Positions 1,150 through 48,294 of a DNA stretch of 58,918 nt are shown here, piece by piece. The stretch is from a virus (taxonomy: Duplodnaviria; Caudoviricetes). A program made the position numbers and the translations under genes. Below the pieces are notes generated by a model. The model worked only from the letters and a program-made list of their open reading frames with translations. It did no database searches and was not told the origin of the DNA. Location: the IMG/VR virus record IMGVR_UViG_3300030450_002092, positions 1 to 58,918 of that record. One strand, 5' to 3'. How positions within the stretch are numbered: the first letter of the stretch is position 1; the number at the start of each line of letters is the position of its first letter.

Positions 1150-3373
1150 ATTATATCAAGTTGTAACTGGGGTTATACCTAAAAATGTTTTAACTAAAAA
1201 GAATAAAGCTAAATCATGGGTGTATGGTTATAATGAAAAATATAATGTTATTATTATTTCTAAAACAGGTCAAATAGGGGAGATTATAAGTATTAGCGGA
1301 TTAGACATAGCCTTGCCATTAGCCCCTGCAATTAGTCGTACACGACCAAAAAACCCTAAAGAACAATATTGGAGTAGAACAGAATACCCTAAAGCTTTGC
1401 AAAAAATTCCTAGTATTTTTATTTGGAATGACATGCCATCTACGTTTAAAAATAATTGGATTGATTATATTGAGCAAGAATTTGAACGAAGAGAAGATGG
1501 CCATTGGTTTTGGAATAACGGAGTTCAAACTTATATTACTGGCTCACATTATATGTATTTACAATGGACAAAAATTGATGTGGGGTTTCCTGATTTTAGA
1601 GAAGCAAACAGATTGTTTTATATTTATTGGGAAGCGTGCAAAGCAGATAATAGGAGTTTTGGAATTTGCTATTTAAAAATAAGACGTTCTGGATTTTCGT
1701 TTATGGGTTCCGAAGAATGTGCTAATATAGCTACTATATCGAAAGACTCTAGAATAGGTATACTATCCAAAACTGGAGCTGATGCTAAGAAAATGTTTAC
1801 TGACAAAGTTGTTCCAATTACTAATAATTATCCCTTCTTTTTTAAACCTATTCAAGACGGAATGGATAAGCCTAAAACTGAATTAGCTTTTAGAGTACCA
1901 GCATCTAAAATTACCAAAAAAAACATGCATTTAGAAGATGATTTTGAAATGGATGGATTGGACACAACTATTGACTGGAAAAATACAGATGATAACTCAT
2001 ATGATGGAGAAAAACTTTTATTGTTAGTACATGATGAAAGTGGTAAATGGATTAAGCCTAATGATATATTAAATAACTGGAGGGTTACTAAAACTTGTTT
2101 AAGATTAGGTAGAAAAATTATTGGAAAATGTATGATGGGTTCTACATCTAATGCATTAAGTAAAGGGGGTAGTAGTTTTAAAAAACTATATGAAGATTCA
2201 GATATTACTAAACGAAACGCAAATGGCCAAACTAAAAGCGGCCTATATAGTTTGTTCATACCAATGGAATGGAATATGGAAGGTTTTATTGATAAATACG
2301 GAATGCCTGTTTTATCTAACATTAAAAAACCCGTGTTAGGAATTGATAATGAGCTTATTAAAGTAGGAGCTATTGATTATTGGCAAAACGAAGTTGATTC
2401 TTTAAAGCAAGACTCTAACGCTTTAAATGAATTCTACAGACAATTTCCGCGTACTGAGTCTCACGCATTTAGGGATGAGTCAAAACAATCCTTATTTAAT
2501 CTAACTAAAATATACCAGCAAATTGATTACAATGATTCTTTAATTATAGGGCAGCATGTTAGTGTAGGAAATTTTAGATGGAAAAATGGAGTTAAAGATA
2601 CAGAGGTGATTTTTAGTCCAGACGCGCGAGGTAGATTTTATTTAGGATGGATACCTGAATCGAATTTAAGAAACAGAATAATAAAAAAAAATGGAATTAA
2701 TTACCCTGGTAATGAACACATTGGGTCATTTGGATGTGATAGTTATGATATTTCAGGCACGGTAGGAGGTAAGGGTTCTAATGGAGCTTTACACGGAATG
2801 ACAAAATATAATATGGATAATGCTCCAAGCAACAGCTTTTTTTTAGAATATGTGGCTAGACCTCAAACCGCAGAAATATTTTTTGAAGATGTATTGATGG
2901 CATGTGTATTTTACGGAATGCCTATATTATGTGAGAACAACAAACCTAGGCTTTTATATCATTTTAAAAATAGAGGATATAGGGGTTATAGTTTAAATCG
3001 ACCTGATAAAACATACAACAAATTATCTAAAACAGAAAAAGAGTTGGGAGGCATCCCAAACTCGAGTGAAGATGTAAAGCAATCTCATGCGGCAGCTATA
3101 GAGTCATTTATAGAAAAATATGTAGGGATTGATTTACAAGGAAACTACAGAGATAGTGATGAAATGGGAGATATGCTTTTTACTAGAACATTAGAGGATT
3201 GGGCTAAATTTGATATTAATAATAGAACAAAATTTGACGCATCAATTAGTTCAGGACTAGCTATTATGGCTAATCAAAAACACCTTTATACACCAGTTAA
3301 AAAACAATCAAAAATAAGCATTAACTTTGCAAGATATGCTAACAGTGGAATATATAGTGAATTAGTACAATAA
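1127..3373 (+). CDS. terL: terminase large subunit
   Basis: Walker A-like LKIRRSGFS, Walker B LLVHDESGK, motif III GST, nuclease acidic motifs GCDSYD and KFDASIS; position before the portal. Confidence 0.9.
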   Translation: MQKETQNKLYQVVTGVIPKNVLTKKNKAKSWVYGYNEKYNVIIISKTGQIGEIISISGLDIALPLAPAISRTRPKNPKEQYWSRTEYPKALQKIPSIFIWNDMPSTFKNNWIDYIEQEFERREDGHWFWNNGVQTYITGSHYMYLQWTKIDVGFPDFREANRLFYIYWEACKADNRSFGICYLKIRRSGFSFMGSEECANIATISKDSRIGILSKTGADAKKMFTDKVVPITNNYPFFFKPIQDGMDKPKTELAFRVPASKITKKNMHLEDDFEMDGLDTTIDWKNTDDNSYDGEKLLLLVHDESGKWIKPNDILNNWRVTKTCLRLGRKIIGKCMMGSTSNALSKGGSSFKKLYEDSDITKRNANGQTKSGLYSLFIPMEWNMEGFIDKYGMPVLSNIKKPVLGIDNELIKVGAIDYWQNEVDSLKQDSNALNEFYRQFPRTESHAFRDESKQSLFNLTKIYQQIDYNDSLIIGQHVSVGNFRWKNGVKDTEVIFSPDARGRFYLGWIPESNLRNRIIKKNGINYPGNEHIGSFGCDSYDISGTVGGKGSNGALHGMTKYNMDNAPSNSFFLEYVARPQTAEIFFEDVLMACVFYGMPILCENNKPRLLYHFKNRGYRGYSLNRPDKTYNKLSKTEKELGGIPNSSEDVKQSHAAAIESFIEKYVGIDLQGNYRDSDEMGDMLFTRTLEDWAKFDINNRTKFDASISSGLAIMANQKHLYTPVKKQSKISINFARYANSGIYSELVQ
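1331..1350 (-). repeat. dispersed 20-bp asymmetric palindrome, copy 1 (TTTGGTCG TGTA CGACTAAT on -), inside terL
   Basis: Identical to the copy at 45472-45491, in opposite orientation. Confidence 0.85.
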
Positions 3374-5809: not shown

Positions 5810-5836
5810 GCTTAAATTTAACATTAAAATAATTAT

Positions 5837-5844
5837 TAACTTTG
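5837..5844 (+). promoter_or_regulatory. Bacteroidota-type -7 promoter element (TAACTTTG)
   Basis: Matches TAnnTTTG, 16 bp upstream of the scaffold ATG. Confidence 0.6.
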
Positions 5845-5860
5845 TAAAAAATTAAATTAA

Positions 5861-25400: not shown

Positions 25401-28400
25401 GCAATGAATGACCCTAATGTGTGGAATGAAGGAAGAAGCGTAGGATTGGCTAGAGGTATACCTATTGCTGTTGTAGACTATTTAAGTGCACGTACAGCTG
25501 GTAAATTATTTATAGGCAAAGGAGGATTATTTCACGCGGGTTCAAGAGCAGAAGCTTGGAGAAGGGCTGGTTTAGTTATAGCAGAAAGAGCTATTGTTGA
25601 CCCAGCAGCTGAAGCTTATGGTGAATATTTAGCGCAATCTGCTAATGCATTATTAAACGGTAAAACATTTAGAGCTGATGAAATAGCTCTAGAAGCTATA
25701 GGTGCGTTTGGAAGTAATACTAGTAATGCTGTTATGAATCTAACTATGACTGCTTTAAAAAATGAACACATATTAAAAGCCAAACAAATGGGAGATACGC
25801 AGTACTATTCTGGCTCTACATTTAACAACGAACAAACCACTAACTGGGCGAATAATATGCGTAAGATTGGGTATATTGATGGGAATACAGAAGAAAAGAT
25901 TCAGAAAAATATTGGGTACAAAAGAGACGCTCAACTGTTGCTGGGATTAGGAGAGAAGGGTGTGGCTAGTACAGAGTTGTTGCCTGTGCAAACTAAAATG
26001 ATGGATATTTTTAATGCTAAAAATCAACTCTCACAGAATGAATTAACAAAACAATTATTTGGAAAACAAATAAGAGTCTTAAACCAAGAACTATCAAACC
26101 TTGCTACACAAAAACAAGTTGTTGCGGGTGAAGAAACTGAAGAGGCGAATAAAATTGTTAATGAAGTTTTAGGGAGAACAGAAGAAAGTCCAGGTGATTT
26201 ACAATTAAGCCAAAGCCCCATAGCTGATTTATTTACTAATGACCAAACATTTAACACAGAAGAAATAGCTTTTGATAAAGTTTCTTTGGAAGACATAAAA
26301 GAAAAGAGAATTCCAGGGGGCACAACCCGTGATGTATATGATATAGGAAACAATAAAGTTATTAAAATTGCAAAGAACCCCAGAGGTTTACAACAGAACA
26401 CATCGTTGAATTACGGGGATTTAAATATACTTGGGCCTTTTGTCCCTAATATATTTGAAAGAGGAGAAGATTATATAGTTGTAGAAAATGTACCTAGAAA
26501 TGATAAAGCAGTAAGAGAATTTTTAAAACCTTTGCAGAAGTTTTCGCAAACAGATTTTGATAACAGAGGCAGTGAAGTTCAAGAAGTAATGGAGGAAATG
26601 GGATTGTCAGATTTTTTTAATTACGATGTGTTGTGGAATGATTTTAAATCTAGAAGAAACTGGGGTCAAAGAGAAAACGGAGAGTTTGTATTAGTAGATG
26701 AAGGTGCGTTAAATAAAAATGTAACAGCTAGGTCAGAAGTTCCTGCTTGGGCTAGAGAAGACTGGGAAAATATTAAAAGAAGAAGAAAAGGAGACGGGGG
26801 TGTTCAATTAAGTCAGGCTGTTGCTCCTTTAGAAAACACGCTACTTGACTATCAATACGACAAAGAAACTGGTTATTTTCCTTCTACCATTGACAACGTT
26901 CAAAAACTTGAAATTATTGTCGAAAGATATGGATATGATTTAATATCAACGCAAACAGAAAGAGGTGAACAAGCTGGATACTATTTAGCACCTGTAGGTT
27001 CCAGAATAAAACAAGACCCATTCAAAGGTAAAGAATTAACTAGAGTACAAAGACAAGAGCCTGATGCTAGTCCTGAAACTAGAGAAGAACTTGTAGCCTT
27101 GTTACAAAAAGCTTTCCCAGGCACGCAGGTATACGACAACCAAGAAGAATTTGAAAAAGCTCTTAAAGACCCAGGTGTAGTTAAAAGAACTACTAAAGAT
27201 GGTTATGTAGCTTATGGAGCTACCCGTGATGGTAAAATATATTTAAACCCTGATGATAAAACATTAGAACTTCCTCTCCATGAATTTGGCCATATATATG
27301 TAGACTATTTAAAATCAAACCAATCGGGTGCAAAAGGAACAGCATTATATAAGAGAGGATTACAGCTTATTACATCTACAGAAGATGGAGAGAAAATATA
27401 CAATCAACAAGTAAAAATATATGGCGAAGGAGACCAGGCTAGGGAAGAGGCTTTAATTATATATATAGCGCAAGAAGGAGCAAAGAAAACTAAAGAGGCA
27501 GAAAGGCAAACCAAAAATAAATTATATAAGTGGTATGAAGCTCTTATGAACTTTATAAAAAATGCTTATTTAAAAGCTAAAGACTTTTTTAAATCACCAA
27601 CCTTTGAACAAGACGTAAAAGGAATGTCTTTAACTGACTTTGTGAATATGGCGTTAGGAGATTTATTGGGAGGTGAAGTAGTTGTAGAAGATGTGATTGT
27701 AGATGAAACAGGTCAAACTAAACTAGCACTGTCTCAGCAAAAAAAAGTGCCACGTGGTAGTAATATGGTGGAAGTGGTAACTGAAGCTAGAGAGTTAGGT
27801 ATATCAGATGACCAAATTAAAGCTGTGTTAGTTGAAAGAGTTAATCGTGGTGAAAACATAGGCGTGCGTGGGGAAGAAAGGTTTACCCGTCAAGATATAA
27901 ATGATGCCTTCACAGCATTACCAACTGAGATAGTTTCACTACCCCCAGCATTTAGAAATATTGAGGGAGGCTTCTTTAGAGGTATGGCTTTATTTACTGA
28001 AGTACAAAACATTGTTAACAAAGCTATCGGGGTTGGTACCACAACCGAAGTAAGAAAAAGACACATAGATTCTGTAAAGAAAAGATTTCCTAAAGCTACT
28101 AAGGGTAAATCTACCGCACAAATATTAAGATTATTTCCAATAGATGAAACCATATTAGAAGGTTTAAAATCACCAGCAGAAATTCGTAAGATAGGTTTAG
28201 ACGCATTGAAAGCAAGTCCTCTTTATGCTGCTCAATCACCTAAAGTTCAAGAACAATTAGTTGTCGATTACGACAAAGAGTTAGGTATAAGAGCAAACAG
28301 AAACGTACAACTTGAGGTTAACAAAATAAAAAACACTTTGCGTGCTAGAAAACAAGGGGCTAAAGATGTTGCAACAGCTAAAAAAGATTTAGCAAAACTT

Positions 28401-31400: not shown

Positions 31401-31445
31401 CGAAGAAAGACTTATAAGAAAAAGAAAAGAACGAGACAAAAATAA
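22485..31445 (+). CDS. giant multidomain (polyvalent-type) internal virion protein with kinase-like and zincin metallopeptidase domains
   Basis: Gly/Ala hydrophobic region ~24.8-25.8 kb; kinase-like 'GGTTRDVY..VIKIAK..ND....NWG..LVDEG' ~26310-26705; 'IYLN...PLHEFGH...EEA' with HEFGH at 27279-27293. Confidence 0.75.
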   Translation: MDELSFSDLYQVLESPDMFNSPEQLTQFFGGDYSVEDLYTVVDKETFPTLQSFQEFFNLPMTNPAGEEMDFSEQDRGTTGVKDWFKKASEKLLGMNPDEDAKAREKTRDSIISAETEKYKNDKTIDVISVSGAPIRDYKDVVKEETTEEFLPKKKKTKNEVAQELRTSLEIEYDPKDYIKNYPAPNDQGLNPKGEPKFETMEEYQAFIEEEVNVGLNQIIGFAGDKGEQIFAFDANSNEGFQNNVSTALDNVGFTDTENTTELKQYQDDYQQRLRNTIGKYGFLIEKPISFNMGMGSVSEFFDLTNYTPDDLKKELQGKRETVATKNPDQYLTITSLDGSDQFNLNIANPSKEELALFEKFVNDKARFPEEPNPEESNIAKALDIKNARTGKRFNLDTGDYSSHKMISVEIDGKYYAMPSLYPKDPNVQSTYEDRWVEFDPETQLDEIIEMANQRGEKYAFETQEEAEAFAEGAWKDYNTVDLEKERFFQAHGFEDYDGMMEAVNDYDAIRDEILLINEIQGMASQQDSQFTKRIGRALGVDEETLLAAGGDAILGDYAALDPKSKVAVGYIDRENFQFVKGERPWLSNATQVYGGNELIVDKATIDKYPKLFGKDGRMRRDWSERKVELEKMRDNLYNITQDKKFQDVSLQWDLEAAKRREAYTIEAINTKNNANMGLKALDQLSIEAFGVSSNELENYRLNNLASLDEQQIEIMDYITLAKGELEAQKIYAADQYIISQTYLNSKSIKEARGVVLEDFWPQVKNEWITRGERGKAAEYLLAMSLFSENPVKMQELMGMSRKEVAIEVSKHLENSVTKSEGMSKEMLEWNKAKGWTEAANVFMDNPLDMGASLAAGSFSEMLPYGLKIIPGFGIVGGTTGFLDAKLRRKRGFRTRGQTNFGQKVIGAGKKLNPKAWARENADLVIGALGGTVKGTMLGGSATILAMEYTTAIFEAATANGYDIFDAEEMLMAMNDPNVWNEGRSVGLARGIPIAVVDYLSARTAGKLFIGKGGLFHAGSRAEAWRRAGLVIAERAIVDPAAEAYGEYLAQSANALLNGKTFRADEIALEAIGAFGSNTSNAVMNLTMTALKNEHILKAKQMGDTQYYSGSTFNNEQTTNWANNMRKIGYIDGNTEEKIQKNIGYKRDAQLLLGLGEKGVASTELLPVQTKMMDIFNAKNQLSQNELTKQLFGKQIRVLNQELSNLATQKQVVAGEETEEANKIVNEVLGRTEESPGDLQLSQSPIADLFTNDQTFNTEEIAFDKVSLEDIKEKRIPGGTTRDVYDIGNNKVIKIAKNPRGLQQNTSLNYGDLNILGPFVPNIFERGEDYIVVENVPRNDKAVREFLKPLQKFSQTDFDNRGSEVQEVMEEMGLSDFFNYDVLWNDFKSRRNWGQRENGEFVLVDEGALNKNVTARSEVPAWAREDWENIKRRRKGDGGVQLSQAVAPLENTLLDYQYDKETGYFPSTIDNVQKLEIIVERYGYDLISTQTERGEQAGYYLAPVGSRIKQDPFKGKELTRVQRQEPDASPETREELVALLQKAFPGTQVYDNQEEFEKALKDPGVVKRTTKDGYVAYGATRDGKIYLNPDDKTLELPLHEFGHIYVDYLKSNQSGAKGTALYKRGLQLITSTEDGEKIYNQQVKIYGEGDQAREEALIIYIAQEGAKKTKEAERQTKNKLYKWYEALMNFIKNAYLKAKDFFKSPTFEQDVKGMSLTDFVNMALGDLLGGEVVVEDVIVDETGQTKLALSQQKKVPRGSNMVEVVTEARELGISDDQIKAVLVERVNRGENIGVRGEERFTRQDINDAFTALPTEIVSLPPAFRNIEGGFFRGMALFTEVQNIVNKAIGVGTTTEVRKRHIDSVKKRFPKATKGKSTAQILRLFPIDETILEGLKSPAEIRKIGLDALKASPLYAAQSPKVQEQLVVDYDKELGIRANRNVQLEVNKIKNTLRARKQGAKDVATAKKDLAKLINLIFPKTDLINRSDLTYMNNRIAAVNDANQLAEIENVLSRIAKVEDRIKKDLISKIKKLIQNQSKTNVTATGKTRKGAQIDVTTKEFFVAAKALLDTYDTPQGLEIFAKEMNELANLENTISKLRDKENKTREDRELIARADAFSVLGDLHQMNLAEVEQLFDDLKNKRQLGRSLHQAEQEERKAELAKLEQEADEQIKKTNKDLFFEDGTPKNQDTLNSEGRNALAGYKKSGFVNSMKKLQKNFLDFDNFKRVMQEMKLNAYDMMAMGHVLYSSLDNRNGKFLLNNIYYRLTDAEENYNSIFFDFRDRLTEIAHEVLGKKKYSNILAERFGLKWNDVDAYQYITVLADNGKTILIEGVNPQNKLSTQNTPLTTSEAMRIIALWKNPESKIILQNDGFTQEKINKLEKFIGKDLTTFVDKVVGFLTDEVYPIINAKHREIYGVNLPFRELYFPRATQPIIGQPKSYGFDVDAQSNLNAIRSMLPGSLSETASPNNLRMILTDMNFFNTLDNYIDDVARWTGYATDVKIIEGIISMPSVEALLSTTGMKEMIIYNINVAIDPSGKTRTPNKTRAISNGISMVTSYFLSLHPMQYLKQASSVVMAYPLYNNPKFKVFKQTKKAGDTLFTGSGIKNIATNTVELLWNTAAFALNEPANISAFMTQIVKEFAPGNYAKNKELAKKISATFRKRNWESKSGNLYMLYTGRERADLIDSTPEGIERKKRAQSYDIIKKAFGFFTSEGDLAGAMGYIIVYKNMIANGFTHEEALRVFNDYNLTNQSRRGIDKPGLQSQKSGTAQVFSAFTTTPIQILNNTYLSFMNFFKDVFRNVTPSGKDFNTFGWVGFISVMLFHAVSSMWLLLLGDKDDREKFWEQVLKWHGIQAMMDAIPMVNETISAFINEVEGTPYKKGKDSTTMPPVEVAEELGKWVRNEEGRNIFEQTLKALYEFTQFRVRAQFDIFEYPLQQAVEGENHWVYDFLRMMRVPKSRIPARFLPKQGGEGRRKTYKKKKRTRQK

Positions 31446-31447: not shown

Positions 31448-31588
31448 ATGCCATTTACTAAAATAGGAAAAAACAAATATAAAAGCCCAAGTGGAAGAAC
31501 CTTTACTGAAAAACAAGTGAAGTTATATTATGCTACTGACGGCTTTAAAAAGAAAAGACCTAAGCGTGGAGACTTTAAGAGGTCTTAA
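31448..31588 (+). CDS. small basic protein (46 aa, MPFTKIGKNKYKSPSGRTFTEKQVKLYYATDGF...), not in ORF track
   Basis: ATG 2 bp after the previous stop; fills the gap exactly to the convergent gene. Confidence 0.65.
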   Translation: MPFTKIGKNKYKSPSGRTFTEKQVKLYYATDGFKKKRPKRGDFKRS

Positions 31589-32673
31589 AAGTAATGCGTT
31601 AGTCTTGCAACCTGCCCGCTTTCATTGTGATGGATAAACCCCTCACAAGCCTTAGGAGCGCCTGTAAAGCCTTTTCTACTGTGCCAGCTATCTGCCGAAG
31701 AAGGAGAGCGCATATACTCTACAGTGACCCCTATAAAGTCTTTTCCATCTAGCCATTTGTGTTTTACTTTGTGGTGAATGTGATGAAGATACCAATATCT
31801 ATGAGTCGTAGACGACCAATCTTGAGGATTTTCTTGCGCCATTAACAAAGGCAAAGCATCCATTTTTGCACCGTCTCCATGCTCTAAACCTATAAGGTTT
31901 GTACCATATTTATAATACTTTCTGTGAGAAACCCCTATATCAAACTTTACATTATCTGCTTTTCTAAACCAACTCTTCAAAGTGTGAGCAAGATGAAACC
32001 CTGATTGATAATCATGGTTACTCATACTATGCAGGACATCAACAGGAGCTACCTGTCTTAACATTTCTATACACTTCACGTAAAGCATTAGAGCTATTTC
32101 ATAATGCTCCCACCATTTACCATCGGTGTCTTGATACGTTCCTTTAGTAGTGGTGCTATAAACATTATCTATATGTAATATGTCGTTGCCAACACAAAAC
32201 AAAACTCTGTCTATATCAAAACCAGCTGATTTATCAATTAATCCTATTACTCCTTCTATTACTCGACTTACAGCCGTTTCGCAATCATATTTTTCGCCTG
32301 TTTCTAATTCATTTGCGTATTTACCTATGTGTATATCTGCTGGATTAACTATTAGCAAATGGTCTCCTGCTGGAGTTTTAATAGTAGGATAGGTAGGGGA
32401 ATAGGTTTCGACAAAAGAATTTATTTTGTCCCATATTTGGTTTTCATCTAACCCTAAGTTTTCTTTAGTAACTACGGAGAATCTATAATCTCCACTTCCG
32501 CTTTGCCAATGCTTTACGCTAACTACATCTTTTTTGTTGATGCCTCTTTCTTTTAAGTGTATATCGAGTGCGGAATTGTTATTTATGTTGTCTACAACGG
32601 TTGCTCTTCTCTGTAGAATTAAATCTACTTCTTCTGTTGAAAGCCTGAGTCGTTTACCGTATTCTTTTCCCAT
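31585..32673 (-). CDS. calcineurin-like metallophosphoesterase
   Basis: DIHIG, GND, SNHD, HGD and HHIHH motifs. Confidence 0.85.
   Translation of the reverse strand: MGKEYGKRLRLSTEEVDLILQRRATVVDNINNNSALDIHLKERGINKKDVVSVKHWQSGSGDYRFSVVTKENLGLDENQIWDKINSFVETYSPTYPTIKTPAGDHLLIVNPADIHIGKYANELETGEKYDCETAVSRVIEGVIGLIDKSAGFDIDRVLFCVGNDILHIDNVYSTTTKGTYQDTDGKWWEHYEIALMLYVKCIEMLRQVAPVDVLHSMSNHDYQSGFHLAHTLKSWFRKADNVKFDIGVSHRKYYKYGTNLIGLEHGDGAKMDALPLLMAQENPQDWSSTTHRYWYLHHIHHKVKHKWLDGKDFIGVTVEYMRSPSSADSWHSRKGFTGAPKACEGFIHHNESGQVARLTHYF
31801..31820 (-). repeat. dispersed palindrome copy 2 (ATTGGTCG TCTA CGACTCAT on -), inside the phosphoesterase gene
   Basis: Read directly from the sequence. Confidence 0.8.
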
Positions 32674-32906: not shown

Positions 32907-33302
32907 TTAGACATTTTGAGATAAAGATAATAAATTATTTTGTTTTTTTAGTTTCTTTACTAATAAAATTAATTCAGCTTTTGTTAACTCTAAGTAATCC
33001 TCGCCCTGCTCATCTAGTAAATCGAGGCATTGTTCATACTTTTTTAACAGTTTTTTATCATAAGACAATATCCAGTCTATACTCTTTACGTAGTGTAAAA
33101 TTGAAGCGTGATTTTTTAAAAGAGACAAACCTATGTGGTAATAAGTAAAGTTTTGTTCCCGTAGTATTTTAGAGTATACCATTCGAGCATTTACATATTT
33201 TCTTTTCCTAGACTTAAGTAATACATCAACACTAAATACGTTGTTAACGATTTGTTTTACTTTTTTTATTTTACGAGTATCTGATTCTTTTAGATATTTC
33301 AT
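32907..33302 (-). CDS. DnaA C-terminal (domain IV) HTH-like DNA-binding protein
   Basis: 'KSRKRKYVNARMVYSKILR...YHIG..L.KNHASILHYV' matches the R..V.AR...IG....HxxVxH pattern. Confidence 0.65.
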   Translation of the reverse strand: MKYLKESDTRKIKKVKQIVNNVFSVDVLLKSRKRKYVNARMVYSKILREQNFTYYHIGLSLLKNHASILHYVKSIDWILSYDKKLLKKYEQCLDLLDEQGEDYLELTKAELILLVKKLKKQNNLLSLSQNV

Positions 33303-33827: not shown

Positions 33828-35063
33828 TTACAAATTTAAGAAATCTCTTTTGAAGTGATTTAGGGTGTAATCTTTTTTCTTTGTAACGGCTTTATAAATT
33901 TGATGCTCAATTCCTTTACGGGCAAATATCCAATAAACTTTATTCTTTAATCTATCCTTGGTTGTCATTCTATCTCTTGATTGCCAATAACTTGTAGCAC
34001 TAAAATCTATATTGTAATAAATTAAAGCACTAGCTTTTTTCAATGAGATACCTTCTCTTCCGCTCACAATTTGCAGGGCAATAGATTTGTCTGTAGTGTT
34101 GAATTCTTCTAAATTGGTCGTTAACGACTCTCTTCCATAAACTTCTTTTAATGCATCAAGCTCTGCAATAAACTTATAGAATATAGCTATTTTTTTATTT
34201 TCAAATTTACGTTTGATAAATTTTGCCTTAGAGTAATCTAAGACGTTTGTAGCGCCAGACTCAAACTTAACAGTCCCTGAATACATTTGGTGAACCTTAC
34301 TCATTAATTTAACCGCGGTGTCTCCTAACACAACTTCTTCTGTGCCTCGCAGCACTTTATCTTTTTGTAATTTTTTAATCCACTCGTATGTTTTTTCCTT
34401 CATATCTACAGTTAAGATTTTTTCTGTAGTTTTCACTTGAAAGCCCGCCTCTTTTTGTGTGTAAGATATAGTGTAAGGTTTTATTTTTTCTAAAATTTTC
34501 TTAGTTCCTCCGCTATAATCTCTTATATACATTATCCCTATTGGTCTAACTTGTACGTTTACATAATCATCAGAAAACCTATAAAAGTTTTTATATTGGG
34601 CAAAAGGATTAGTAGGTATCCCATAAATTTGATGATAAATCTGACTATAACTTTCGGGTGTAGGAGTTCCTGATAACAGAATAACAAAAGGATTATGTTT
34701 TTTTAGCAACGCTTTAACCTGCTTAGCTCGTTTGCTGGGTTTGGGAAAAGCCCCCATCGTATGGGCCTCATCACATATTACCACCGTCCATTTATTTTTA
34801 GGAATTTTATGTAAGCTCTCATAATTAATCACGTGTAGGTGATAATTAGGATTAAGCAAATCATAATCTGCTTCAATACTTGATATAGCTTTTTTTTTGG
34901 TTATAAAAAGCACACTGCCTTTTCCACCAATATCTTGTGCAATGCTTAGGGACGTTAAAGTTTTTCCCGTTCGCACCTCCATTGCCAGATATAAAAATTT
35001 ATATTGGTTTATTATTTGTAACCCGCGTGTTACAATTTCTTTCTGGTAGGGTCTGAGTTCCAT
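33828..35063 (-). CDS. SNF2-like superfamily 2 helicase
   Basis: LRPYQ, TGKT, DEAH, LSGTP, EGISL and QSRDR motifs. Confidence 0.85.
   Translation of the reverse strand: MELRPYQKEIVTRGLQIINQYKFLYLAMEVRTGKTLTSLSIAQDIGGKGSVLFITKKKAISSIEADYDLLNPNYHLHVINYESLHKIPKNKWTVVICDEAHTMGAFPKPSKRAKQVKALLKKHNPFVILLSGTPTPESYSQIYHQIYGIPTNPFAQYKNFYRFSDDYVNVQVRPIGIMYIRDYSGGTKKILEKIKPYTISYTQKEAGFQVKTTEKILTVDMKEKTYEWIKKLQKDKVLRGTEEVVLGDTAVKLMSKVHQMYSGTVKFESGATNVLDYSKAKFIKRKFENKKIAIFYKFIAELDALKEVYGRESLTTNLEEFNTTDKSIALQIVSGREGISLKKASALIYYNIDFSATSYWQSRDRMTTKDRLKNKVYWIFARKGIEHQIYKAVTKKKDYTLNHFKRDFLNL
34113..34132 (+). repeat. dispersed palindrome copy 3 (ATTGGTCG TTAA CGACTCTC), inside the helicase gene
   Basis: Read directly from the sequence. 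Confidence 0.75.
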
Positions 35064-39750: not shown

Positions 39751-40158
39751 TTATTTGTTTGATTGATTAAGTTTTTTGTTTATTTTACTATATGAATTCA
39801 TTATCCTTTCTCGTGCTGCCTTTAGATTCATAATATGTTTAGCATTCTTTCGTGTGTTTACTTCTGTTTTTATTTTGTCTTCTATCATTTCGAGTTTTCT
39901 ACGATAGTTAGACAAACATAAGACAAAAACAGCAGACCGCCAACCTTTTTGATAAAAAATTTCATACTCCTCCGTAGTTATTTCTTTATAAAAATCTCCG
40001 CCTAGAGTTGTGTTGTGAATTATAGTATCAAAATTAGTTTTGTTCTGCTCTATTCTGATTCCAGACAAAAGCCGTGCTTCAAATTCTTCCCCGTCTAAGA
40101 CGGCAGAAAATTCGTCTGCCTTTGCTTGATTAAATATTTCTTTTAAAGTGTAACACAT
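39751..40158 (-). CDS. hypothetical protein
   Basis: 135 aa in the operon. Confidence 0.6.
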   Translation of the reverse strand: MCYTLKEIFNQAKADEFSAVLDGEEFEARLLSGIRIEQNKTNFDTIIHNTTLGGDFYKEITTEEYEIFYQKGWRSAVFVLCLSNYRRKLEMIEDKIKTEVNTRKNAKHIMNLKAARERIMNSYSKINKKLNQSNK

Positions 40159-40445
40159 TCTTGAATTCTGTCCGTGATGGTAATGTAATCCTCATCTTGT
40201 TGTCTTTTCTGTTTGACCACATCTATCCCGTGAAGGATTGAAGAGTGACTTATTTTGTATCCGTTTTTTGACAAGTAATCTTGAATGTAACTTAATCTTA
40301 TTTGTCTTGACATACACCCGAAATATAAAATATGTCGCGCATCTACCACTTTTCTTTCTTTAGTTTTAGTAAAGAGTTTTTCTCTACTAATATCATACAG
40401 TGAGCAAACGTTGTCTGCTAGCTGATTAAATATAGGTTCTTTCAT
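40143..40445 (-). CDS. second DnaA domain-IV-like HTH protein
   Basis: 'LFTKTKERKVVDARHILYF...HSSILHGID'. Confidence 0.6.
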   Translation of the reverse strand: MKEPIFNQLADNVCSLYDISREKLFTKTKERKVVDARHILYFGCMSRQIRLSYIQDYLSKNGYKISHSSILHGIDVVKQKRQQDEDYITITDRIQECVTL

Positions 40446-40936: not shown

Positions 40937-41218
40937 TTATTTCTGACTTTTTAATCTTTCAATTTCAAACTCTAGATGGGCAATAGCTTTAGTTAAGCAT
41001 TCTATTCCCCCATCTTCGTGCTTGACTCTTGAACGTAAGCAGTAGGTAACTGCGGTACCCACATTGTAAGAGCAGTTAAAATCTTCAACCACATATCGTG
41101 CTTGATACTTTCCTGCTCTTGTTGTATTTCCTACATAGTAGCTGGGTACTCTGTTATCTTTATCGGTAGTTGATAGGTTTCTATCAGTGTCGTACCAGTA
41201 TGCGCTTTTACCTTCCAT
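40937..41218 (-). CDS. DUF3310-like phage protein
   Basis: 'PSYY...GTAVTYCLR...K..GIECLTKAIAHLEFEI'. Confidence 0.65.
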   Translation of the reverse strand: MEGKSAYWYDTDRNLSTTDKDNRVPSYYVGNTTRAGKYQARYVVEDFNCSYNVGTAVTYCLRSRVKHEDGGIECLTKAIAHLEFEIERLKSQK

Positions 41219-41219: not shown

Positions 41220-41618
41220 TTAAAAATTTAGAAACATGTCTTTCGCCATGTCTTCAAAGATGGTTTTTTCTAGCTTTTTTAAATCTAAACTAACCTCTAG
41301 TTCTTTCTGGTAGTTTAAAGCATAATGAGATTCGGGCAGCATTTGAATAATAAATCCGCCCGCATATCTAATAACTTCTTTGGAGTTGGGTAATAGTTTA
41401 AATCCTAAATCCACTACGCTCACATCGTGGTCTCTATATAGGTGTAGATACGTGTTCATAGTCATTATTTGGCCAGTACTTCTAAAAGTAGTTAGGCTGA
41501 TTCTTCCTTTGTCTATTGATTGTTGTAGCTTTTGTATAACTTTTTTACGTGGTGTTTTTTGTGATTTTTCTAACAGTATTTCGGCTGTTAGCATTCTTCT
41601 GGGTTTCTTGAATTTCAT
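41220..41618 (-). CDS. hypothetical protein
   Basis: 132 aa, early region. Confidence 0.55.
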   Translation of the reverse strand: MKFKKPRRMLTAEILLEKSQKTPRKKVIQKLQQSIDKGRISLTTFRSTGQIMTMNTYLHLYRDHDVSVVDLGFKLLPNSKEVIRYAGGFIIQMLPESHYALNYQKELEVSLDLKKLEKTIFEDMAKDMFLNF

Positions 41619-42166: not shown

Positions 42167-42393
42167 TATCCTACGCTTATTGTTGAGCGAGTAACATTAC
42201 ATCTATCTACCATATTCCAATAGTGGTCGTAATATTTATCGAACACTTCTTGTGCTTCAGGGGTGTATTCTGTGTGAGTTCCGCAGTCAACGTTTATATC
42301 TGAATCGGTTTTTCCCTCTGCGTAAAAGTCTTTGATTGTTCTATTGCTTGCAAGTGCGCAGCAAAGTTCTATTTGATTGATTTCTATATACAT
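42166..42393 (-). CDS. hypothetical protein
   Basis: 75 aa, first gene after the promoter at 42419-42453. Confidence 0.55.
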   Translation of the reverse strand: MYIEINQIELCCALASNRTIKDFYAEGKTDSDINVDCGTHTEYTPEAQEVFDKYYDHYWNMVDRCNVTRSTISVG

Positions 42394-42418: not shown

Positions 42419-42453
42419 AGACAAAGGTACAACAATATTTAGACATAGCCAAA
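42419..42453 (-). promoter_or_regulatory. full Bacteroidota sigma-A type promoter (TTTG-N20-TACCTTTG)
   Basis: Both -33 and -7 elements at canonical spacing; 29/35 identical to 45125-45159. Confidence 0.8.
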
Positions 42454-42473: not shown

Positions 42474-42493
42474 ATTGGTCGCTTGCGACTAAT
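42474..42493 (+). repeat. dispersed palindrome copy 4 (ATTGGTCG CTTG CGACTAAT)
   Basis: About 20 bp upstream of a promoter -33 element; overlaps the TAG of 42489..42734. Confidence 0.85.
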
Positions 42494-42734
42494 CGTTGTC
42501 TGCTCGTGCTTGCTCCAGTGCCTTGCTGTAAAAATAAGATTCGTGATTGTCGAGAAAGTCCCAGTAAAAATCTGTGATATCTATATTGTTTAGTTCGACA
42601 CTTTGTATCGATAGGTCTTCTTCGGGTGGTTGGTCGTAGTCGTGCGACATATCATCGTAGTAGTATTTATATTCTATTACTATACAATAGTTGTCGCCTT
42701 CCACAACGCAAGTTCCATATTTAGTTATAGGCAT
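42489..42734 (-). CDS. hypothetical acidic protein
   Basis: 81 aa. Confidence 0.55.
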   Translation of the reverse strand: MPITKYGTCVVEGDNYCIVIEYKYYYDDMSHDYDQPPEEDLSIQSVELNNIDITDFYWDFLDNHESYFYSKALEQARADND

Positions 42735-43003: not shown

Positions 43004-43005
43004 AG

Positions 43006-43327: not shown

Positions 43328-43356
43328 ATTTATTGTTTTTAATTTATTTGTTATTA

Positions 43357-43881: not shown

Positions 43882-43933
43882 TTGTTATTGTTTTTTTGTT
43901 ATTAATATTTAGTCAATGTAAACAAAGCAGAGG

Positions 43934-45064
43934 TTAGCTAGTAACCTCTTGCTCTGAATACATTTCATTACACACACTGCAATGATATTTTTGATTGCTG
44001 ATTTCAGTTTCATCATAGTAAACTTCTTCAAAGCAAATGTTACAATACTTTGTATTGTCATCTTCTTTGTCTGCTATTGTTGACAATGAAGAGAATAAAT
44101 CCCTACGCTCGTGGTAACGAGTAGTAGGCTCGTAAGTGTACTGCTCATAGGTTGGCTTATCAGCGTATGAGTATCGCCTTGTACCAAAGCTAAATTTGGG
44201 TGTAATTGGAAAGCTTTTATGATACTTCATATTGGTTGATGAGATACTATCGTATCTATTCCAGTTATTGTTTATAAAGTATATCCAAGCATTTACTATC
44301 GTTCCATTGTTTAGCTTGATAGGTAGTTGCCTTCTGCGATAAAAATTCGGGTGTCCCTCTAGCGAATCAAGAGCAGAAAAGGTGTCATTGTTTACCTTAT
44401 ATACTTCGACTTCTACGTGGTGTCCACTTCCGCGTTTATCTAACAAGTAAGGCAGCCCGCTGATTACTAGCGGGTACCTATCTTTTGTCGTTCCTTTGTT
44501 TACAAATCGTTGGCCATACAATAATCTGTGATTGCCCCCGCCTTTCTTTAAAGTACCATACACTGCTACAACATTGTGCTGTAACACATTGGGTTTAGAA
44601 AACCAAACTCCATTGTGTTTTATCCACATTTCTTTGTTGTAGATTTCGTATTGTCGGTTGCGTTTGTTGTAAGTAACAAATCTAGAATCGTGCTGACCTA
44701 GTACTGCTCTTCATTGCTGCCTAGCAATACCGCCTAGTTCAATAGCAAGTTGCTTGCTATCACACATATCTTGTGTTCCATACCCGCGTATAGTTCCATT
44801 GTGCATAAGCAGTTCGTTACTATTATTACCGCATATAAATGGGTGGGTGTTTGCTTTGTTAATTTTCCCTTTAGTTGCTAATCTGAAATGAGCGATATAG
44901 GGTCTGTCTGTGTCTAGTACTTTCCATTCTTTAGACTGGTAGTATTCGACTTCATTGGTATCCAGAAAAATTACGCCTAGTCCGTGAGGATTGATGCGTG
45001 AAGAATTTTTAAGTATCTCTGGCGATACTTTTTTGTCTTTCGACTTTACAATAATTATACACAT
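43934..45064 (-). CDS. class II glutamine amidotransferase / gamma-glutamylcyclotransferase / Zn-ribbon fusion, interrupted by one in-frame TGA (44711-44713)
   Basis: MCIII..NPHG..HFRLATKG..THPF..HNG (Ntn GATase); frame stays open for 27 codons after the TGA into 'WIKHNGVWFSK' and 'VAVYGTLKKG...LDSLEG' (GGCT/AIG2); C-terminal CNIC..CSVC. Confidence 0.75.
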
Positions 45065-45124
45065 AGTTTATTTGTTTGTGAGGTTTGTACTTCTAGTATT
45101 GTGTACGCTGACCTCTGATTATTT

Positions 45125-45159
45125 AGACAAAGATAAGAAAACATTTAGACATAACCAAA
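45125..45159 (-). promoter_or_regulatory. full Bacteroidota sigma-A type promoter (TTTG-N20-TATCTTTG)
   Basis: Canonical spacing; shares the TATGTCTAAAT spacer with 42419-42453. Confidence 0.8.
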
Positions 45160-45221
45160 CAATTTATGCGAAATTTTATTTCGTGTATTCTAGAAGACCG
45201 CTTCCAAATGTCTTCTTTGAA

Positions 45222-45434
45222 TTTGTGTCTCGTGTTTTTTTTTGTGTCTCGTGTTTTTTTTTACAGCTCCTCCGCTTCCAGCTTCTTTGCTTCTGTATTT
45301 GTAAATCCCCTCTGCTTCTTTGCTTCCGCTCCCCATGCGTCTGCCATGCGTCTGCCATGCGTCTGCCAATCCCGCGGGATTAGCAAAGGAGGTTCGGCAA
45401 AAAAAATTCGGTTCGGTGAAAAAAAATTCGGTTC
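45222..45434. repeat. non-coding island of mixed tandem repeats and a palindrome
   Basis: 19-mer x2 (45222-45259), GCTTCTTTGCTTC x2, CCATGCGTCTG x3 (45333-45365), palindrome AATCCCGCGGGATT (45368-45381), A8TTCGGTTC x2. Confidence 0.9.
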
Positions 45435-45439
45435 AAGGC

Positions 45440-45474
45440 AAAAAAAAAGACCGCATAAAGCGGCCTCTCTTTTT
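45440..45474 (-). terminator. intrinsic terminator closing the 48085-45487 gene trio
   Basis: On -: AGAGGCCGC-TTTAT-GCGGTCTTT followed by a T run. Confidence 0.8.
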
Positions 45475-45491
45475 GGTCGTGTACGACTAAT
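45472..45491 (+). repeat. dispersed palindrome copy 5 (TTTGGTCG TGTA CGACTAAT)
   Basis: Overlaps the TAG of 45487..46182. Confidence 0.85.
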
Positions 45492-46182
45492 TTGTGTGAA
45501 CGTATCTCTGTTCAGTTGGGATTTTTATTTCCTCAACATTTACAAAAACTCTCTTGCTACATTGTGTAAGTCTGTATAAATGTTGATTCGAAATTATGCT
45601 GCTCCCTCTAGCCCTATTGTAGTCATAAAGCGTTTTACCATTTACCCATTTTCCAGAATCAGCATAAAAGGTTAGGGCCATTGCACTTAATCTATAATAT
45701 TTTATGATATAAATTAAAAAATCTCTATCCCTCTCATCGTATCTTATTCTAGCGTGCATAAGGCGGTTAGCTTGTCTAATAGCATTGTCAATTAAGGAGT
45801 AAACCTTTTCCACAGTATGAATTTTAGGCCAGTTTAATTCTAAAAATTCTAAACTAGTGTTAATTCCGAATCGCAATTCGTTGTGTTCTGTAGGTGTGAA
45901 AAGCATTTCTATTCCTTTAAATTGCGCTTTGTTTAGCCTTAAACTTCGGCTCCCCCACGTATCTCTCGCTAAAGGAAACGAAAGTCCTTCTGCGGCCTCT
46001 AAACCATTGTTGCTACGCCTTTGACTATCAGATAAAGTTTTAACAAATTTACATCTTAACTTTTGTTCGTTGTTTGGTGTAATTTGTTGAAAGTAAAATG
46101 AATTCAAAACTTCTTGTAAGTTTCTTCTTTGCGCGCCAGTTAATTTAATACTGGTTAACATTTTGTTTGTGTGTGTACTCAT
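45487..46182 (-). CDS. hypothetical protein
   Basis: 231 aa, no motif recognised. Confidence 0.6.
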   Translation of the reverse strand: MSTHTNKMLTSIKLTGAQRRNLQEVLNSFYFQQITPNNEQKLRCKFVKTLSDSQRRSNNGLEAAEGLSFPLARDTWGSRSLRLNKAQFKGIEMLFTPTEHNELRFGINTSLEFLELNWPKIHTVEKVYSLIDNAIRQANRLMHARIRYDERDRDFLIYIIKYYRLSAMALTFYADSGKWVNGKTLYDYNRARGSSIISNQHLYRLTQCSKRVFVNVEEIKIPTEQRYVHTN

Positions 46183-46289
46183 AATATTTGTTTTTAAATT
46201 GTTTAATCTGTTTCATCGTTTTCGAATCATCAGGCACGACATTCATCGCACTACAGAGGGCAGTTTATACAGCTGCCCAGCTGTGTCAA

Positions 46290-47390
46290 TCATCTTTTGC
46301 GTGCAAAAGAGATTTCCCCTCGTTTCCACAATCGAAACGCTGTCGGTGTTGTTATCGATTTCACAACCGCTAACTCATCGCGGTGCATTCTAGCTGGATT
46401 TTGGTATCTGTTCCAAATAAAAGGCAATACAACGTGGTTAATTTTGTTAGTCATTAACATTTTTCTAAAGTGTTTTGATAACTCAATTAACATTTCAACC
46501 TTGCCCTCATCGTTGTTATACATCGATAATAAAGTTGGTTTTAACTTCTTAATCAATTTTGCATAACTCCCTCTATCATTAACAGCAAAATCAACAATAA
46601 TTTGCATTAATTTATATCTGTTAATCATTTGTTTTACGCTAGTAAATCGGCTCCATAATCTAAACTCCAGTAAACCTAATCTTGATTTCTCAAATATTGG
46701 CTGGTATTTTGTACCTCTAGCAGCGTTGATATGGTCTGATATAGATTCGCTAGTTGTTCTCGCTGTAACGTTATTGCAGCAAAACTGGTTAGCTAATCTC
46801 TTGCGGTTAAGAGCGTAAATGATTGCGTAATAAGGCCTCATCAGTTCATTTAATTCACTACTGGTATGATTTGCGCTAGCAATAGTCATATGGCCGCCAC
46901 ATCTGTAAGACCCATAGTCATTCATTTCATCTGACTGGCTGTAATTTTCATCGATTAAATACTTTGCTTTATGCATTAAATCAAATATTTTATTACGCCA
47001 TTTGCTCATTGGGATAAGTGGTAAAATATTAGTGATGGCTTCAAGTCCGCAGCTCCCATCTCTTTCAATCCCTTTCATTAATTGACAAAAATAATTCAAT
47101 TCGCTACCAGTTAAAACATCTCTAGAAATTCTCGATTTCTCTACTTCCATTCCGATAGTAAATTTTGATTTGTAAACAAACTCAGAAGATTCTAATACTC
47201 TGGTTATGTTGTTTGCTCTTTGTTTCTTTGTCATTCCAGTTAAATCAACCTCAAATTTTGTATTTGCGTAGTCCTCTGGATTCGGGCTACATTGATAAGG
47301 CTGTACAACAATTCTAGAACGCTGATTGCCATTTGAATTGGCCGCCAGCTGCTCTAGTTTGTCATACTTTTTTCCGATTAAATTTTTCAT
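46290..47390 (-). CDS. putative amidoligase (COOH-NH2 ligase family)
   Basis: 'TIGMEVE','RDGSCGLE','CGGHMT','LEFR' motif order of phage amidoligases. Confidence 0.75.
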   Translation of the reverse strand: MKNLIGKKYDKLEQLAANSNGNQRSRIVVQPYQCSPNPEDYANTKFEVDLTGMTKKQRANNITRVLESSEFVYKSKFTIGMEVEKSRISRDVLTGSELNYFCQLMKGIERDGSCGLEAITNILPLIPMSKWRNKIFDLMHKAKYLIDENYSQSDEMNDYGSYRCGGHMTIASANHTSSELNELMRPYYAIIYALNRKRLANQFCCNNVTARTTSESISDHINAARGTKYQPIFEKSRLGLLEFRLWSRFTSVKQMINRYKLMQIIVDFAVNDRGSYAKLIKKLKPTLLSMYNNDEGKVEMLIELSKHFRKMLMTNKINHVVLPFIWNRYQNPARMHRDELAVVKSITTPTAFRLWKRGEISFARKR

Positions 47391-47416
47391 TTGTGTGTGT
47401 GTTTTTAAGTTAAAAA

Positions 47417-48085
47417 TTAGTTTGAATTATTGTTAAAATTATCGTTTCCAGTATCAATTCCAGTTAAAACAGATACTCCCGCCAGTTTTGATGCTAAAAA
47501 TTGCATCGCTTTTACGATTTCATCTTGCTCATTTTTACTGGTTAACTCTAGATTTTCATCGATTCTAACAGCGATATTTCTTTCCGCATCTTGCTCCAGT
47601 TCTTTAATCTTAAAAGCTAGTGTGAAAATAGTCGGGATTGTTGCCGATACTGACTCTTCTGCATTTACTTCAAGTCCTTTGACAAATTTGTTAAAATTGT
47701 CGATAGACCTAACAACATTCTTTCCGCTCTCCTCTTCTTCTGTACATTTCGTTAAAAACTGGTTAACATAATCAGCATTTTGAGTAGTACTCTTATAAGC
47801 TTTCGCCATTCTGTTCATTTGGCTTTGCTTAACATTAAAAAACTTCATTGACATATCTTCAATACTCCAAAGAGCCAAATCGTTAGATTCAAACATTCTT
47901 TTTGTTGCTGGTTTCTTTAGCCATTTTTTGCATTCTGTAGCTAATTTTCCCATTTGAATTTTAGCTATTAATTTGCTGCTTTGGGCAGTTTCTACAGTAT
48001 CAACCAGCGCTGATATTTCTGTAAGTGTGTTCGAAAAGTTGCTATCGTTTAGCATTTCTCTTTCCATTTCTAATAAATTTCTCAT
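47417..48085 (-). CDS. hypothetical protein, first gene of the leftward (early) arm
   Basis: 222 aa; TAATTTTG element upstream at 48117-48124. Confidence 0.6.
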   Translation of the reverse strand: MRNLLEMEREMLNDSNFSNTLTEISALVDTVETAQSSKLIAKIQMGKLATECKKWLKKPATKRMFESNDLALWSIEDMSMKFFNVKQSQMNRMAKAYKSTTQNADYVNQFLTKCTEEEESGKNVVRSIDNFNKFVKGLEVNAEESVSATIPTIFTLAFKIKELEQDAERNIAVRIDENLELTSKNEQDEIVKAMQFLASKLAGVSVLTGIDTGNDNFNNNSN

Positions 48086-48274
48086 TGTTTTATATTTTTT
48101 TATGAGATTTTGCGGGCAAAATTACCCTCGAAATTACTCCTAATATTCTGCGTTTTTACTCTGAAAAACAGCGTTTTTACTCGCGTATTGTCTATTAGTT
48201 GTGCATTCATAGTTTAAATATAATCTAATTCAACCAGTTGACCAAAGGATTTTTATATTATTTTTTTGGGCTGA

Positions 48275-48294
48275 ATTGGTCGCATACGACTAAT
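48275..48294 (+). repeat. dispersed palindrome copy 6 (ATTGGTCG CATA CGACTAAT)
   Basis: In the divergent intergenic region, ~30 bp upstream of a TTTG-N20-TATATTTA promoter-like element on -. Confidence 0.85.

Follow-up and report, generated by a model that had tools for sequence, protein, structure and literature searches.

The 58,918-bp stretch of DNA that we analysed (henceforth referred to as 'the window') is the whole of a Caudoviricetes record in IMG/VR (IMGVR_UViG_3300030450_002092; estimated completeness 96%) and contains dispersed copies of a 20-bp palindrome with the full consensus ATTRGTCGY-NN-RCGACYAAT. We report that this palindrome is a real, selected and conserved DNA element, that palindromes of the same build and of other sequence replace it in other lineages, and that the presence, the position and one short segment of a protein family, represented in the window by the 222-aa product of 47417..48085 (-), track the palindrome. 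Judged from sequence comparison, the best explanation would be that the palindromes together act as operators for phage regulators of a new family.

The original prediction had called six copies of the palindrome, and an exact search for TTGGTCG-N4-CGACT recovered all of them where they had been placed, at 1334-1349(-), 31804-31819(-), 34114-34129(+), 42475-42490(+), 45473-45488(+) and 48276-48291(+). As had been claimed, this number is beyond chance: no match occurred in 100 dinucleotide-preserving shuffles, and the core GTCG-N4-CGAC is found seven times in the window against an expectation of 0.02. The spacers are TGTA (twice), TCTA, TTAA, CTTG and CATA, and the copies at 1334 and 45473, which lie 44 kb apart, are identical over 23 bases, both as described before. 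A search of the window with an 18-mer consensus allowing up to 3 mismatches returned no extra sites. The seventh core match (GTCG-ATTA-CGAC at 28263..28274, inside an open reading frame (ORF) of 2986 aa) corresponds to a weaker copy reported at 28261; the core does exist there, but its membership in the system did not stand, since it has no counterpart in G008 and G011, the two relatives whose sequence extends over it, and fails the 18-mer consensus, and this copy is probably outside the palindrome system.

Three of the six copies lie inside genes, in agreement with the original prediction: one in terL (1331..1350 (-), phrog_6681, over codons I-S-R-T-R-P-K), one in a DNA-repair exonuclease gene (31801..31820 (-), within 31585..32673, phrog_704) and one in an SNF2-type helicase gene (34113..34132 (+), within 33828..35063), the last being present in one lineage only. 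The remaining three lie in the leftward arm of the genome, where the measured spacings of 2998 and 2803 bp bear out the interval of 2.8-3.0 kb noticed earlier. Two of these are at gene boundaries and do overlap TAG stops, as had been noted, with the TAG within the motif: the copy at 42474..42493 (+) contains the stop codon of ORF 42489..42734, and the copy at 45472..45491 (+) contains that of ORF 45487..46182, which is the third gene of the leftward arm. For the gene starting at 42393, a pattern scan with the consensus of Bacteroidetes sigma-A promoters found a leftward promoter of this type (TTTG-20 nt-TACCTTTG, 42422..42453 (-)); the 42474..42493 copy is located 21 bp upstream of its -33 element, and the promoter block is conserved in 11 aligned sequences. 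The 45472..45491 copy is directly followed on the minus strand by a terminator-like hairpin (45440..45465 (-), read from the sequence as a GGCCGC/GCGGTC stem and then a T-run on the minus strand), which is kept in 6/7 aligned relatives. The last copy (48275..48294 (+)) is situated in a divergent control region that separates the rightward arm from the candidate regulator gene, and lies 194 bp upstream of where this gene starts.

We determined how far the palindrome is conserved at three levels of relatedness. The full motif was present in 0/80 and the core in 2/80 of the 80 best relatives by terL (74-88% identity) among the more than 599 in IMG/VR, and five longer relatives with TerL identities of at most 79% were likewise without the motif. 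A scan of IMG/VR with a 14-base form of the motif matched at least 115 stretches, of which at least 22 align to the window at 74-98% nucleotide identity. In 10/10 related records that were searched whole, 2-5 copies of the core were found in each, compared to 0-2 of a reversed control pattern. An absence of the motif from related phages, which would have counted against the original prediction, is thus not what was seen, and its copies lie at syntenic places: 51 mapped copies fall on seven recurrent window positions (1340, 6968, 31810, 34122, 42483, 45481 and 48284), with one extra degenerate copy near 41086 in G013. At every recurrent position the arms are fixed and the four central bases are freely variable. 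Naming each form by the purines of its two half-sites, the terL site has the core at the same codons in 8/8 covering relatives of the motif clade, as a perfect A/A or G/G palindrome; the 6968 site, which is intergenic and precedes the capsid gene, was found in 9 relatives and not in the window, G009 or G007; the exonuclease-gene site is present in 6/6 covering genomes; and the helicase-gene site is confined to the window, G008 and G011, being absent at the same codons from G010, G015 and G006. The 42483 site is found in 12/12 covering genomes (11 in the G/A form, with nine different spacers), the 45481 site in 9/9, every one in the G/A form, and the 48284 site in 8/8 (five G/A, two flipped to A/G and one G/G).

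The intragenic copies allowed constraint on the DNA to be separated from that on the protein. Across six genomes, the arm codons of the exonuclease gene (GAT, TCG, ACG, ACT and CAT) vary in 0/5 cases, compared to 15/16 for degenerate flanking codons (hypergeometric P ~3e-4, hand calculation), that is, the synonymous positions of this intragenic copy are held and do not drift. The terL site lies in a variable loop with no length change between motif-bearing and motif-lacking relatives. The arginine codons in the motif clade are CGT and CGA; in the motif-lacking L010 and L028, ACA and CCG stand in place of the first, and AGA in place of the second. Origin by point change together with fixed arms and codons indicates that point substitutions create and remove the sites and that selection acting on the DNA then maintains them, and the earlier proposal of selection on the DNA itself is thus supported by both syntenic presence and synonymous-site constraint. 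Despite these conserved intragenic copies, sites of the window's class (henceforth the GTCG class) are depleted from ORFs (7/29 within ORFs vs 21.8 expected).

A half-site profile built from 44 distinct copies (88 half-sites) gave A-T-T-R-G-T-C-G-Y, in which GTCG is invariant in 88/88 half-sites without any compensatory change, R comprises 43 A, 42 G and 3 T, and Y comprises 74 T, 13 C and 1 A; the R and Y positions are often unpaired. The half-site centres are ~11 bp apart, which would be consistent with a dimer reading two successive major grooves and leaving the two central bases unread. The proposal that the outer spacer bases pair did not hold across relatives, where the rule is Y..R and C..A is common. 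Of the fixed polarity that had been described, the mixed G/A half-sites are real in the window's close clade, but a general polarity is not, as G007 and G013 carry the 48.3-kb site in flipped orientation and G010 has it in the G/G form, and a sister lineage (L363, L364) has perfect TGGTCG-N4-CGACCA. Single-strand folds of the sites are weak (-2.3 to -5.8 kcal/mol), the G-half leads the coding strand at 31804 and at the relatives' 6968 site and the template strand at 1334, 34114, 42475 and 45473, and no T-run follows the sites on the transcribed strand. Given the invariant core, the lack of compensatory change and the weak folds, it appears to be the sequence that is read and not a structure. 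Intrinsic termination was rejected as a role, since the sites are without a U-run and a separate terminator-like hairpin adjoins the 45473 copy.

De novo scans revealed that other lineages carry different palindromes of the same build, with six-base arms around four free bases, and that these arm-N4-arm palindromes have lineage-specific arms and occur in 3-10 copies per early region. Examples include GCGTTTAAACGC in G001 (7-8 copies), GGGAGCG-GAAA-CGCTCCC in G003 (3 copies) and GTCCGT-N4-ACGGAC in G004 (7 copies). In a survey of the early regions of 80 loci anchored on the phage GroEL gene, the commonest class was GTGTCT-N4-AGACAC (= GTGTC-N6-GACAC, henceforth the GTGTC class), which was found in 20 loci with 4-10 copies per ~10-kb early region; L433 is added to these by its AGTGTC-N6-GACACT form. 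Further classes were TTCCGA-N4-TCGGAA (10 copies), GTGCAC-N4-GTGCAC, GTGTAC-N4-GTACAC, CGTATT-N3-AATACG and others. As can be read directly from the sequences, a GTC-N6-GAC frame is common to the window motif and the commonest class. Depletion from ORFs extends to GTGTC-class sites (40/127 within ORFs vs 96.6 expected), to L379 (2/10 vs 6.7) and to G004 (0/7 vs 5.8), with G001 as the exception (5/7 vs 6.1); some intragenic copies are conserved in these lineages too, for example inside GroEL in the GTGTC class.

The protein that tracks the palindromes is encoded by the first gene of the leftward arm (47417..48085 (-); 222 aa) and has a putative recognition helix at approximately residues 84-97. 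Iterative search over the ORFs of all loci gave 45 members of this 47417 family, and profile comparison identified a divergent member in L379 (probability 89.7%, E 2e-6). When the count is limited to loci that extend at least 8 kb upstream of GroEL, many of them near-duplicates of one another, the family is present in 26/26 palindrome-bearing and 0/6 palindrome-free loci. At least seven site classes have a family member. The position of the gene is also kept: irrespective of class, a palindrome of its own lineage lies 180-276 bp upstream of the ATG in 26/35 rows and 47-55 bp upstream in 4 more, and many GTGTC-class loci carry a second palindrome copy 1-22 bp after the stop codon of the family member. 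Residues 85-93 read [KRG]QSQ[ML]NRM in 8/8 members of the GTCG class and [WFY]QKS[FY]x[YF]K in 13/15 members of the GTGTC class (L378 and L433 have K for Q), within which whole-protein identity averages 42% and goes down to 20%. The corresponding segments of the smaller classes are IQKSFAYR (GTGTAC), YNKSFFYD (GTCCGT), TEKSQTAK (GTGCAC), IAERMIQR (CGTATT) and IKKSDSYD (TTCCGA). The two large classes are told apart by 11 alignment columns, and four of these are residues 86, 87, 91 and 92, which stand beside a near-invariant S88 and a largely conserved K95. By eye, the family pattern F-x3-V-F-G-x-Q-K-S-x3-K-x2-K-A-G looks helix-turn-helix-like (HTH-like). No Pfam or PDB profile matched the family when 29 or 54 members were submitted, the window protein itself has no Pfam, PHROGs, NCBIfam or PDB-sequence match, and a protein atlas returned only a weak lead to DUF3102 (0.91, 131 shared features). 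The family comprises 393 clusters at 50% identity among 1.84 billion representatives, all ~200 aa; its named homologues are all 'hypothetical protein' and are found on phage-size contigs.

On balance, we lean towards the view that the 20-bp dyad is a double-stranded DNA operator of a phage-encoded regulator, most likely the 222-aa product of 47417..48085. With its gene first in the leftward, presumably early, arm and its own operator ~190 bp upstream of its start, the regulator would be made early and would regulate itself. It would bind as a dimer, with one HTH-like helix per 9-bp half-site, and would occupy some seven sites in the genome, mostly at transcription-unit boundaries (a divergent control region, a stop codon with a terminator and a stop codon with a promoter) and in a few cases inside replication or packaging genes. 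At the boundary sites the regulator could stop read-through or modulate the next promoter, thereby switching or blocking the host RNA polymerase during infection; as there is no fixed distance to promoter elements, repression, activation or a block to elongation would all be possible. We infer the binding, the dimer, the HTH fold, the early timing and the regulatory effect from the sequences, and among the candidate roles listed in the original prediction an operator or roadblock network appears to fit best.

Several observations weigh against this assignment. The HTH call for the 47417 family is a sequence pattern judged by eye. On the protein tree the members of the GTCG class are a single clade (97/98), so its distinct helix could reflect shared descent, and the GTGTC class forms a deep paraphyletic grade; the co-variation argument thus rests mainly on retention of the helix across this grade and on the small classes. 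Neighbouring genes are nearly as well associated with the palindromes (43934..44629 in 24/26 palindrome-bearing and 0/6 palindrome-free loci, 41220..41618 in 23/26 and 0/6). Palindromes occur with no detectable family member in G001 (7-8 copies), G003 and L399, where other binders or mechanisms must therefore exist. A homodimer leaves the near-universal G/A mixing of half-sites in the close clade unexplained. Finally, promoter boxes are at no fixed distance across 114 GTGTC-class sites, for which minor clusters were seen 20-35 and 50-65 bp downstream of putative starts.

A more far-reaching version, which we regard as speculative and rather doubtful, is that the 47417 family and its palindrome sets form a 'private regulatory code' in abundant marine Flavobacteriia phages, in which protein and sites would repeatedly have switched specificity together, acting as a stoperator-like switch of elongation or promoters and driven by competition during co-infection. 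If this were so, the code would provide immunity-like exclusion without lysogeny in apparently lytic phages, and the family would represent a natural library of helix-to-site recognition pairs.

Other binders and roles were considered as well. The winged HTH protein 51468..51899, which the original prediction had put forward as a binder, is encoded in every locus, including 6/6 palindrome-free ones, and was rejected: its putative recognition helix differs among GTGTC-class members and hardly changes from one class to another. The DnaA-IV-like protein 40143..40445, also put forward, has the same HTH (HSSI[IL]HGI) in the GTCG and GTGTC classes and was rejected too, being present in 4/6 palindrome-free loci. 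A second DnaA-IV-like protein (32907..33302) is encoded beyond the GroEL-anchored loci; its comparison, made by eye, covered 7 genomes, and its C-terminal tail is leucine-zipper-like. Both DnaA-IV-like proteins resemble Bac_DnaA_C (Pfam) below the cut-off (32907..33302 (-), E 4e-5; 40143..40445 (-), E 3e-6). No evidence was found for the suggested hairpin or nick signal, partition site or decoy for a host protein, and the folds, as given above, are weak. In 185,579 species genomes the 14-base form gave single scattered hits in all phyla (at least 120 stretches), and among the matches listed no record had more than one copy, which makes a host regulon unlikely. The arms resemble the pentanucleotide sites of T7 primase; the phage primase is of the AEP/PriCT type with an SF3 helicase and is not T7-like, and several site classes are without GTC, and the idea of primase sites was therefore dropped. 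A virion RNA polymerase with hairpin promoters was likewise rejected, as scans found no polymerase family or motif. Literature on Cellulophaga-phage promoters and palindromes and on elemo phages, taken without supplements, yielded no paper describing the sites.

An action through structure, with the palindromes as RNA or single-stranded DNA hairpins (stabilisers, terminators, processing signals, hairpin promoters or priming signals) for a structure-reading or RNA-binding factor, would account for several features: the stem and a centre of exactly four bases persist in every lineage while the arms change, which looks compensatory between lineages, the G003 version has a GAAA loop, many copies lie between consecutive operon genes, 1-22 bp after the stop codon, the G.T combination of the window's clade pairs on one strand only, and one G004 copy is within a longer stem just after the capsid gene. 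However, we consider it unlikely: copies within a genome share their arms, with no compensatory change in any copy, and the folding energies are low at the values given above. At 31804 and at the relatives' 6968 site, pairing is possible on the mRNA strand, but at 34114, 42475 and 45473 on the opposite one, so that the mRNA there would have an A.C mismatch; the Y..R and B positions beside the arms are often unpaired; and the sites have neither a T-run on the transcribed strand nor an Rfam match. Furthermore, no RNA polymerase gene was recognised and the 2986-aa ORF contains no DxDxD motif.

More improbable still, in our view, is that the copies are small mobile or recombinogenic cassettes akin to the PeSL elements of T4-type phages, which would multiply through duplication and gene conversion, their main use being as crossover points when modules are shuffled, with regulation secondary. 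There is precedent for this in the parts of the PeSL literature considered here (PMC4122927, PMC2839356), and the 6968 copy is a ~22-bp block present in 9 relatives and missing from the window, G009 and G007, two window copies are identical over 23 bp, variable early-arm gene sets are flanked by copies, and two copies adjoin a promoter or a terminator. Set against this, the intragenic copies arose by point substitutions in codons with length unchanged; map positions are kept through ~25% nucleotide divergence with spacers free and arms fixed, whereas the arms of a passive repeat would erode by drift; and mobility leaves the co-varying protein segment unexplained. We give a similarly low weight to the possibility that the sites serve a DNA transaction other than transcription, such as centromere-like partition or condensation, loading or priming by the AEP-primase/SF3-helicase, or packaging. 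The scanned ORFs, which include all those of at least 300 aa, yielded no recognisable gene for ParA, ParB, an integrase or any other lysogeny or partition function, the sites are enriched at early-arm gene boundaries and not clustered, their orientation is without pattern relative to GC-skew switches, and the primase-helicase is 67-68% identical across lineages that have quite different palindromes. What speaks for such a role is that terL contains one copy and replication genes contain others, that the 45473 copy adjoins three tandem-repeat arrays that are a possible origin, that intragenic palindromes of 16-20 bp whose synonymous positions are held are reminiscent of chromosomal parS, and that primase-helicases of the AEP-primase/SF3 type often bind origins.

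For the preferred reading, an operator set of a phage regulator, the nearest analogue would seem to be the repressor-stoperator network of Cluster A mycobacteriophages. As described in the parts of the stoperator literature considered here, one phage regulator of L5 or Bxb1 has many short cognate sites genome-wide, of which a few are true operators at promoters and most are non-promoter sites thought to block elongation (PMC6550527). Stoperators lie mainly in short intergenic gaps and have a lineage-specific consensus, repressor and sites diverging together (PMC6550527, PMC9283540); they are asymmetric 13-bp sites that are read by a monomer and oriented with transcription, number up to ~30 per genome and belong to temperate phages (PMC6550527). 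Similarly, the palindromes reported here are spread over the genome (6-7 sites, and up to 12 per locus in relatives), are depleted from ORFs and have a protein segment that co-varies with the motif class. Unlike stoperators, the site is a 20-bp dyad of two equivalent 9-bp half-sites and has no consistent orientation, the 48.3-kb copy being flipped in two relatives; the sites are fewer in number; no lysogeny gene was recognised among the scanned ORFs of the window; and the 47417 family is without detectable relation to any named family. The PeSL cassettes, from what is set out in the sections of the source drawn on here, are repeated stem-loop elements that lie between early genes of variable content and form composite units with promoters or terminators (PMC4122927). 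The window palindromes are also short, repeated and located between early genes, beside a promoter (42475) or a terminator (45473); in contrast, they form no fixed composite unit with these, and they combine conserved intragenic copies, lineage-specific arms and a co-varying protein, none of which is seen for PeSL in those sections, where PeSL elements have no dedicated binding protein either.

Two further systems merit comparison. The ParB-parS and KorB systems have dispersed palindromes on a replicon, some of them intragenic, which are bound by a dimeric HTH protein that may act as a global regulator. The window phage shares the dispersed and partly intragenic palindromes, but no scanned window protein matches a ParB family in Pfam, PHROGs or NCBIfam, and the sites are at early-arm transcription-unit boundaries and not around an origin. 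In N4-like phages a virion RNA polymerase reads hairpin promoters. Several inverted-repeat copies near early genes and a giant ORF (2986 aa) that closes the structural block are reminiscent of N4, but neither a polymerase family nor a DxDxD motif was found for this ORF, which leaves room for a very divergent enzyme; a bare DxDxD pattern occurs in four other window proteins, none of them convincingly polymerase-like. The weak hairpins, their inconsistent orientation and the presence of host-type promoters in the window are additional differences from N4.

If the operator reading is correct, an unannotated repeat of an uncultured and widespread marine phage becomes a concrete and testable regulator-operator pair, and a function would be assigned to a large unannotated family (393 clusters). 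Dispersed operator networks, which are known mainly from temperate mycobacteriophages, may then organise transcription in Bacteroidota phages too, where regulation is almost unexplored. The site classes with matching helix variants would be usable for working out a recognition code and could help to group metagenomic phages by regulatory compatibility.

Both ends of the window are bridged in alignment by contigs of relatives, which indicates a circular or permuted map. Rightward genes run from ~48.5 kb via the ends to 31.4 kb and encode chaperonins, lysis proteins, terminase, portal, capsid and tail proteins and the 2986-aa ORF; leftward genes run from 48.1 to 31.6 kb and include many small ORFs, the AEP-primase/SF3-helicase, the SNF2-type helicase, a VRR-NUC nuclease and exonucleases. 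The TerL protein is 47% identical to those of Flavobacterium podoviruses and also matches 15 Cellulophaga phages (identity below 60%), and it is 74% identical to that of one uncultured phage; on this basis the window phage appears to be related to podoviruses of Flavobacteriia. Public sequencing runs that contain the stretch come from 10 studies, with no RNA run among those listed, and a near-identity search of two long window stretches against a phage collection gave no match. None of the scanned window ORFs could be assigned to an integrase, ParA/ParB, RNA polymerase or DNA polymerase family; the scan for partition and lysogeny genes covered every ORF of at least 300 aa, and many small ORFs are without a family. 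The window contains no tRNA, and Rfam gave no family in the window or in the loci of 5 relatives except one tRNA in L420.

A number of features in the surroundings of the boundary copies are also of note. The promoter at 42422-42453 is near-identical to a second Bacteroidetes-type promoter at 45128-45159 (-), both reading TTTGG[CT]TATGTCTAAAT ... TA[CT]CTTTGTCTA, and is bracketed by a 10-bp inverted repeat (AAAGGTACAA / TTGTACCTTT). A ~420-bp non-coding stretch (45065-45486) between a GATase-like gene and the terminator hairpin contains three short tandem-repeat arrays (periods 19, 11 and 20) at 45222-45447, in place of which relatives have different GC-rich repeats; this repeat stretch may be an origin of replication. 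A block of ~40 nt (48189-48228), located between the regulator gene and the 48.3-kb palindrome, is almost invariant in 7 aligned genomes. It overlaps the start of a 36-aa ORF (48100..48210), its conservation exceeds that explicable by coding, and it may act as promoter or leader for the regulator gene. Most relatives keep a three-gene cluster of the early arm (43934-47390 (-)), of which 43934..44629 encodes a gamma-glutamyl cyclotransferase-like protein ending in a zinc-ribbon-like tail, 44711..45064 a GATase class-II-like protein and 46290..47390 a product of 366 aa that by eye resembles an amidoligase. Elsewhere, the phage encodes GroEL and GroES (49627-51502), and a second GroES-like protein (226-792) lies beside the terminase genes. 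The 2986-aa ORF (22485-31445 (+)) at the end of the structural block has no PHROGs, Pfam, NCBIfam or PDB-sequence match and is fast-evolving, with 82% identity in G008, 46% in G006 and barely detectable similarity in more distant relatives.

Related lineages provided further observations on early-region repeats. In GTGTC-class relatives, many palindromes sit in a longer intergenic unit that consists of an extended-arm palindrome, a 5-bp hairpin whose loop reads CACACA or CACTCA and, where the next gene begins, GCTGATGATGA; such units are found at positions 4243, 6503, 7023 and 8101 of L433, 7011 of L420 and 7145 of L374, and have no Rfam match. The complete relative G002 (L224-L227) is without palindromes and without the 47417 family, and has 10 same-orientation copies of an 18-mer, TTTGTAACTGACAGAGGG, at positions 254-2475 and 59794-61164 (~4 kb of early region), which may represent a different regulatory scheme. 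Lastly, L409, which is also without the 47417 family, carries nine copies of GGACC-N4-GGTCC within 1.8 kb downstream of GroEL (16104-17840).

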